64,000 nucleotides of DNA from NCBI GenBank assembly GCA_048941015.1, contig JBHLNZ010000003.1, forward strand, positions 60,797-124,796. The letters run 5' to 3'. Positions 796-1,458 of the stretch are shown piece by piece (within the stretch, counting starts at the first letter, position 1; every line of letters begins with the position of its first letter). The stretch is from Promethearchaeota archaeon. Its GTDB lineage: Archaea; Asgardarchaeota; Lokiarchaeia; Sigyniarchaeales; SOKP01. The notes beneath the pieces were generated by a model that saw only the letters and a list, made by a program, of their open reading frames with translations, was not told the DNA's origin and made no database searches. The translations under genes were made by a program, and so were the position numbers.

Positions 796-830
796 TAGCC
801 ACATTCCCGTTTCAGAGCTTGATATTTAAT

Positions 831-1026: not shown

Positions 1027-1458
1027 ATGCCTCAAATTTTAAATTTTTCTATAACTGGACTAGAAGATTACACAATTAGCTTTGAGACTTACTGTTCTAC
1101 ATGTGATATTCAAAAGTACTGTAAGTATGGTAAAGAAACCCCTTTCAGTATATCAATAAATTGTGGGGATTTAAACCGAGCTAAAGAAAAGATTAAATTT
1201 GATCAACTTCAAAAATTACAAAAAAAAGAAGATGTGTCAGTCACATATGAAGAACTAGTAAAGAAGGTAAAAATTAATCTTCAAAATATTTTTAGTCAGA
1301 TTTGGAAAGATAAAATTAAAGCTCAAAAAGAAGAACTTAGGTGTCTGGATTCTAGAAAAACAGATTCTATGCTTGTAGCTCAGCAAGGTCAGGATTGGTG
1401 GCAAGATTTCAATATAACTATGAAAGAAATTAATAATGAATGTGAAAAAATTGTCTAA
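1027..1458 (+). CDS. Hypothetical protein, possibly Zn-binding
   Basis: 143-aa ORF with CxxC-x5-C and further Cys; no family recognised. Confidence 0.65.
   Translation: MPQILNFSITGLEDYTISFETYCSTCDIQKYCKYGKETPFSISINCGDLNRAKEKIKFDQLQKLQKKEDVSVTYEELVKKVKINLQNIFSQIWKDKIKAQKEELRCLDSRKTDSMLVAQQGQDWWQDFNITMKEINNECEKIV

Follow-up and report, generated by a model that had tools for sequence, protein, structure and literature searches.

A conserved leader strand complementary to the 3' acceptor strand accompanies acceptor-stem introns in tRNA-Ile(GAU) genes of a Promethearchaeota family

The tRNA-Ile(GAU) gene of a Loki-type Asgard archaeon (Promethearchaeota) is interrupted in its acceptor stem by a 30-nt intron, and just upstream of its mature 5' end lies a surrogate 5' acceptor strand, GGGAAUG (positions 808–802, minus strand, of the window, the whole 64,000-nucleotide stretch that was analysed), whose partner is nt 66–72 of the tRNA. 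From comparison of related genes, this 7-mer is the conserved core of the finding, and the leader is a genuine helper element under selection, attached to an intron whose type is otherwise known. The splice motif uses tRNA nt 2–7, which otherwise pair with nt 66–72 as the acceptor stem, a conflict that the leader would solve. It would thereby explain how the acceptor stem can accommodate an intron although splice motif and mature fold need the same bases there. Sequence comparison and folding models together make it probable that, during splicing, the leader 7-mer acts in cis as a decoy for the 3' acceptor strand.

The tRNA-Ile(GAU) gene and its intron

The gene lies on the minus strand, as do all of its parts given below, and is the sole GAU gene found in the assembly. 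Exon 1 (nt 1–7, GGGAGAG, 795–789) is the same as the start of intronless alleles; its nt 2–5 enter the central helix of the splice motif and A6 and G7 the 5' bulge. The intron (788–759) is inserted at position 7/8, with bases 764–761 as the partners of nt 2–5 and A760 as the first base of the 3' bulge. Exon 2 (758–692) runs from U8 to the discriminator A73, ends in the 3' acceptor strand CUUUCCC (nt 66–72, 699–693) before that base, and matches Rfam RF00005, which covers model positions 8–63 only (758–700, 40.5 bits). CCA is not encoded. In relatives, 64 intronless alleles read G[GC]GAGAG-UGGCUUAG or close variants; the beginning of such alleles, GGGAGAG-UGGCUUAG, fixes 795 as the mature start and 7/8 as the insertion point. 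The spliced sequence equals that of the intronless alleles, so that intron removal restores a canonical tRNA. The gene is colinear at one locus, its exons neither on separate loci nor in reversed order. ARAGORN at default settings called no tRNA at this locus and none in the window, and with introns allowed it miscalled the gene as tRNA-Glu; an acceptor-stem intron with a helper leader shows why annotators miss such genes.

In 53 distinct alleles the intron is 30–32 nt long and its loop varies freely. The central helix, between nt 2–5 and intron positions −3 to −6, has all four pairs in 44/50 alleles, and the inner helix h' has all three in 43/50, with changes on both sides. A 3-nt 5' bulge is present, both bulges start with A, and the A at −2 is invariant. 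The first bulge adenine is the clamped base in EndA–RNA structures. An outer helix directly closing the 3' bulge, as in the strict hBHBh' form, was not found, the best one leaving a 2x3 internal loop; since G1 faces G9, the motif is of the relaxed bulge-helix-bulge type, HBh'.

Non-canonical bulge-helix-bulge (BHB), HBh' and BHL introns of tRNA genes have been catalogued (Asgard census, bioRxiv 10.64898/2026.10.13.758758; PMC11291895), and in Thermoproteales BHB introns occur down to position 3/4 (PMC4090602). The present intron resembles these archaeal introns in being short and ORF-less, in its 4-bp central helix, inner helix and 3-nt bulges starting from A, and in the presence of EndA and RtcB in the genome. 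It differs from them in its position, 7/8 not being among those quoted in PMC4090602, and in its dedicated helper strand, as far as those introns are described in the portions of the literature consulted. The Asgard census places acceptor-stem introns in a class 'other', and the word leader does not occur in it. A literature search covering other than subscription papers found no description of a duplicated or spare acceptor strand. A dozen tRNA-Ile loci from other families of the order and class carried no acceptor-stem intron.

Several minor observations concern the same gene in relatives. Further introns lie in the anticodon arm and T-loop of tRNA-Ile at L030, L068, L141, L218, L063, L065 and L070, which brings the total to as many as two per gene. 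At L209 (G038:C147), in another family, the D arm of tRNA-Ile(GAU) holds an insert flanked by a short direct repeat (TTGGCAC-like). Five loci from two genera (L006, L019, L120, L128, L134) share near-identical sequence directly 3' of the tRNA, which suggests a shared insertion downstream of it.

Distribution and covariation of the leader

The preliminary description had seen in the 13 nt upstream of the tRNA a near-copy of its mature 5' end, able to pair with the 3' acceptor strand. Both statements hold: 808–796 (GGGAAUG-UG-GCUA) is identical to nt 1–13 (GGGAGAG-UG-GCUU) at 10 of 13 positions, and 808–802 forms six of seven pairs with nt 66–72, with one U·U mismatch. The remaining 6 nt, UGGCUA (801–796), form a spacer that measures 5–7 nt in relatives.

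Conservation of the leader was assessed mainly from a search on exon 2 in 135 genomes of the family, in which the inner exon was not presupposed. It yielded 31 intron-bearing genomes in five genera and 64 intronless ones, and metagenome contigs added further alleles. A leader was present in 53/53 intron alleles, as the preliminary description required, versus 0/64 intronless ones; the intron alleles are related and were probably exchanged horizontally, so that these counts are not independent. The 7-mer ending 5–7 nt before +1 forms 7/7 pairs with nt 66–72 in 45 alleles, 6/7 in seven and 5/7 in one, whereas the best pairing at the same positions of intronless alleles is 5/7 (n=64). Of 6016 7-mer windows upstream of intronless alleles, only 7 form 6/7 pairs, which gives a chance of about 0.35% for the three allowed offsets. 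The match is thus beyond chance, all the more since a T-arm scan of the other tRNAs of this genome revealed no second acceptor-complementary 7-mer just upstream of a 5' end.

Covariation, proposed earlier as a check, is also seen. Where the acceptor stem has C2-G71, the leader changes from GGG to GCG, in all of five alleles at three places on the tree; the GCG leaders could stem from re-duplication instead of compensatory change. Leader positions G1, G3 and G7, which face C, are invariant in the 53 alleles, and positions 4–6, which face U, vary between A and G; nearly all of the variation preserves pairing. The commonest leader, GGGAAAG, is the full Watson-Crick complement of nt 66–72 and not the copy of exon 1, GGGAGAG. 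Neutral decay in an AT-rich genome (29% GC in the example genome of the family) would not spare the C-facing G residues, which argues against it.

A second, independent case of a spare acceptor strand is found, at the level of sequence, in tRNA-Ser(GCU), which carries an intron at position 6/7 in seven genomes of the family (loci L242, L248, L276, L262, L283, L285 and L286 in genomes G017, G028, G122, G096, G132, G140 and G141). In all seven, a leader GCUC[A/G]GG located 10–12 nt upstream pairs 7/7 with nt 66–72. Among 37 intronless tRNA-Ser(GCU) genes, nine of them with the same exon sequence, upstream pairing is at most 5/7 and none (0/37) has the 7-mer. The tRNA-Ser spacer is unlike the D arm, its last two bases pairing with U8 and C9 in 6/7 genomes. 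With no D-arm copy in this spacer, what the two cases share at their core is the 7-mer. The central helix is weak in the folding model for tRNA-Ser even with the leader (0.02–0.32 in 5/7 alleles).

The leader is likely included in the precursor transcript, since every candidate promoter lies upstream of 808. A TATA-like box had earlier been taken to place it there. The octamer, TTTATTAA, is present (838–831, minus strand) and would imply a start near 808, but it is no proof of that start, because the region is very AT-rich and the 8-mer is changed in the closest relative (L122). In roughly half of the intron alleles, TATA-like words cluster 40–49 nt ahead of position −13. An A-run/T-run element (896–883, minus strand) is conserved: it precedes 51/52 intron and 60/60 intronless alleles and remains next to the tRNA even where the upstream gene is a different one. 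It is a candidate BRE-TATA or a candidate terminator of the upstream gene.

As a side observation, most intronless tRNA-Ile alleles of genus g28 (e.g. L079, L081, L089) have TTCCC about 5 nt upstream of +1. Being complementary to the tRNA's own first bases, it possibly forms a leader hairpin.

Folding models and proposed processing

Across 50 alleles, the mean modelled probability of the central helix was 0.51 with the leader, 0.03 without it and 0.08 when the 7-mer was replaced by A7; the leader raised it in 49/50 and 50/50 alleles in the two comparisons, respectively. Without the leader, exon 1 was engaged in the acceptor stem with a probability of 0.93. For the allele of this genome the values were 0.98 with the leader, 0.09 without it and 0.91 with the 7-mer mutated, so that for this allele the model needs no more than the spacer. 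In the spliced molecule, the native cloverleaf was the best defined fold in 38/50 alleles, by a margin of 2.8 kcal/mol in this genome and less in most others; the unconstrained ensemble still kept the surrogate stem (0.80). Since the free ensemble keeps it, its displacement would probably need tertiary contacts and capture by RNase P.

The spacer has two possible pairings. Its RGCY core can pair with nt 23–25, as a mimic of the D-stem, or with nt 9–12, as an outer helix of the splice motif; the latter is possible because GGCU is nearly self-complementary. The GCUA/UAGC D-stem that had been proposed can form in this genome with 4/4 pairs. Three pairs of this mimic hold in 41/50 alleles and fail in spacers such as AAACCC or UAAUUC, and pairing with nt 9–12 is possible, position by position, in 51, 47, 44 and 50 of 53 alleles. 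The best defined precursor fold combined the surrogate acceptor, the splice motif and the nt 9–12 outer helix in 39/50 alleles; it was the one with the native D-stem in 8/50, the one with the native acceptor in 3/50, and the one with the D-stem mimic in none (0/50). Pairing with nt 9–12 is therefore favoured over the mimic in the models, as a preference and not a proof, since the nearest-neighbour model handles D-stems poorly and fails to recover even the native one.

Consequently, the surrogate cloverleaf of the preliminary description stands in one half. Its stand-in acceptor strand agrees with the distribution over alleles, with the C2-G71 covariation and with the rise of the central helix from 0.03 to 0.51. 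The D-stem made by the leader, from which the intron would be presented in the D-loop, does not: it is missing in 9/50 alleles, is never part of the best fold and is absent in tRNA-Ser.

Consider a precursor in which the leader 7-mer takes nt 66–72 and stacks on the T arm. Exon 1 nt 2–5 would then be free to pair with the intron, and, from covariation and folding, a short outer helix between spacer and nt 9–12 is probable, which would leave the 3' splice site in the 2x3 loop. By analogy with known archaeal tRNA processing, EndA would cut at G7|N and N|U8, and the 20-nt 5' piece would remain held through the surrogate stem. Exon 1 would next retake nt 66–72 and be ligated by RtcB, and trimming of the leader at +1 by RNase P would make the native fold irreversible. 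This genome encodes EndA, RtcB and Rpp30. RNase P RNA was detected in 4/5 congeners, and a search of this 95%-complete assembly did not find it. The decoy reading thus predicts that tRNA maturation includes a short exchange of RNA strands.

Alternatively, the surrogate helix may be real and have its main job after or around cleavage, tethering the 7-nt exon for ligation or delaying the RNase P cut at +1, which, if made before splicing, would lock exon 1 in the acceptor stem. Such a role predicts the same conservation of the leader, a 7-nt exon would be difficult to keep once it is free, and the allele of this genome forms the splice motif in the model with its 7-mer mutated (0.91). Across alleles, however, the motif collapses without the 7-mer (mean 0.08, and higher with it in 50/50), and we consider it unlikely that this is the main job, although the decoy and tether roles are not exclusive.

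In the decoy reading the leader recalls the split and permuted tRNA genes of Nanoarchaeum equitans, Caldivirga maquilingensis and Cyanidioschyzon merolae (PMC4090602, PMC4033280), in which flanking sequence absent from the mature tRNA likewise pairs, allows processing by EndA and holds the pieces together. In those genes the leader pairs with the trailer, which creates the splice motif itself. Here, in contrast, the leader stands in for one strand of the mature fold, pairing with nt 66–72 about 100 nt away within one continuous gene.

Origin and spread of intron and leader

On a 92-tip tree (FastTree, from two short flanking proteins, with weak deep branches), the presence of the intron and that of the leader switch jointly some 21 times, in places even between very close sister tips. 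The tRNA-Ile locus is syntenic across relatives. In this genome and some ten other alleles, the leader occupies the place at which most intronless genes begin, 74–78 nt from the conserved upstream element. Because the leader sits where intronless relatives start their tRNA, an origin by direct repeat is probable: a 43-nt insertion with a 13-nt direct repeat would have left the leader copy as a by-product, turning the old gene start into a helper, and selection would afterwards have kept only the 7-mer.

Intron and leader most likely spread together, by co-conversion driven by a free-standing gene for a putative HTH / zinc-knuckle / Vsr-like nuclease (L156:5969–7438, homologs P0001–P0023). This gene ends 120–230 nt upstream of 20/56 intron alleles and of 0/66 intronless ones; for alleles with at least 600 nt of flank, the numbers are 19/51 and 0/59, respectively. 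It occurs in 8/135 genomes, always just upstream of an intron-bearing tRNA-Ile allele, a fixed site with a patchy distribution, and several copies are truncated or frameshifted. It is absent from this genome. Five more loci reached through the nuclease protein all had intron and leader, and a paralog adjoins tRNA-Ser(GCU) in 3/7 of the intron loci.

The model of the C-terminal domain of the nuclease had a pLDDT of 89, the full-length model being of low confidence. The domain aligned with Vsr (1cw0; Z 8.5, rmsd 3.5, 122 aligned), with I-Bth0305I (Z 7.8, rmsd 3.1, 98 aligned) and with the RAP domain (Z 8.6), all modest Z scores. The residues of Vsr-like enzymes, a conserved D and E-x-D-x-x-x-H-D, were found as invariant D74, E97, D99 and H103. 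A Foldseek search with the nuclease model returned no significant match and a Pfam search with the upstream nuclease no family, and its Atlas neighbours were mostly phage proteins with DUF4379, CapR or NUMOD domains.

From these gene arrangements, the association of intron and nuclease looks like collaborative homing, in which free-standing endonucleases act in trans, as T4 mobE does with the nrdB intron and SegB in a tRNA region (PMC2988022); Vsr-like (EDxHD) homing endonucleases are known (PMC2677866; I-Bth0305I, PDB 3r3p). As in such systems, the free-standing gene of the relatives is often decayed and stands beside the intron allele, never beside an intronless one. The leader, located between nuclease gene and intron, would be carried along. 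Unlike in those systems, the partner would be a protein-spliced tRNA mini-intron with a helper leader on an archaeal chromosome. The 2026 Asgard preprint leaves the arrival of tRNA introns open and does not consider homing endonucleases; the nuclease link offers a possible route for the spread of these introns.

More generally, Asgard acceptor-stem introns may depend on a distinct class of RNA element, a placeholder strand that sets off an ordered series of steps, from the surrogate stem through cleavage, strand exchange and ligation to RNase P. In this tentative generalisation, to which we give slightly less than an even chance, the strand would be made by insertion, stay linked to the intron and be spread by tRNA-targeting Vsr-like homing endonucleases, the intron serving as an immunity mark.

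The same distribution, patchy and linked to the nuclease, would be expected if the leader had no role in RNA and were a scar or homology arm at the level of DNA, a 13-nt duplication of the target that arises, and is renewed, on copying of the intron allele into an intronless gene. The distant alleles G125 and L141 carry exact copies of nt 1–13, for which the template can only have been intronless or spliced, and the distance of 74–78 nt to the upstream element, here and in several other genomes, is that of the usual intronless start. The decay of the leader is nevertheless selective: spacers drift (AAACCC, UAAUUC), no change occurs in the G residues that face C, and the one G commonly replaced by A faces U68, so that pairing improves as identity to the gene drops. 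Moreover, the tRNA-Ser leader copies nt 1–7 only. A mere scar thus appears quite improbable.

We dropped the notion that the leader is the true 5' exon, with a mature start at 808 and with a 43-nt intron, or a 30-nt and then a second 13-nt one, removed: in spite of a leader at the old gene start that often pairs better with nt 66–72 than exon 1 does, we give this scheme hardly any credence, as no splice motif fits (by inspection, there is no bulge-helix-bulge for a 43-nt intron at 7/8, 9/10, 10/11, 12/13 or 13/14), a 13-nt second intron would give G14, leader position 8 is often not U, the spacer varies over 5–7 nt, U·U mismatches occur in eight alleles, and the inner copy equals the mature sequence of intronless alleles in each of the 31 genomes retrieved by the search that did not presuppose it.

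An integrated virus with attP in the tRNA was also set aside; no integrase was seen, and an adenylate-kinase-like gene and ORF143 are syntenic around most intron alleles. In the window, a 143-aa ORF with a CxxC motif (1027–1458, plus strand), without a match in a Pfam search, shares 57–95% identity across the family and is usually divergent from tRNA-Ile. Intron-bearing tRNAs lie within about 2 kb of distant nuclease paralogs at 15/19 loci, a count that has no background control. These paralogs (L224/L247 (G148:C48), L236–L251) stand beside intron-containing tRNAs for His (three introns), Lys, Asp, Leu, Gly and Val.
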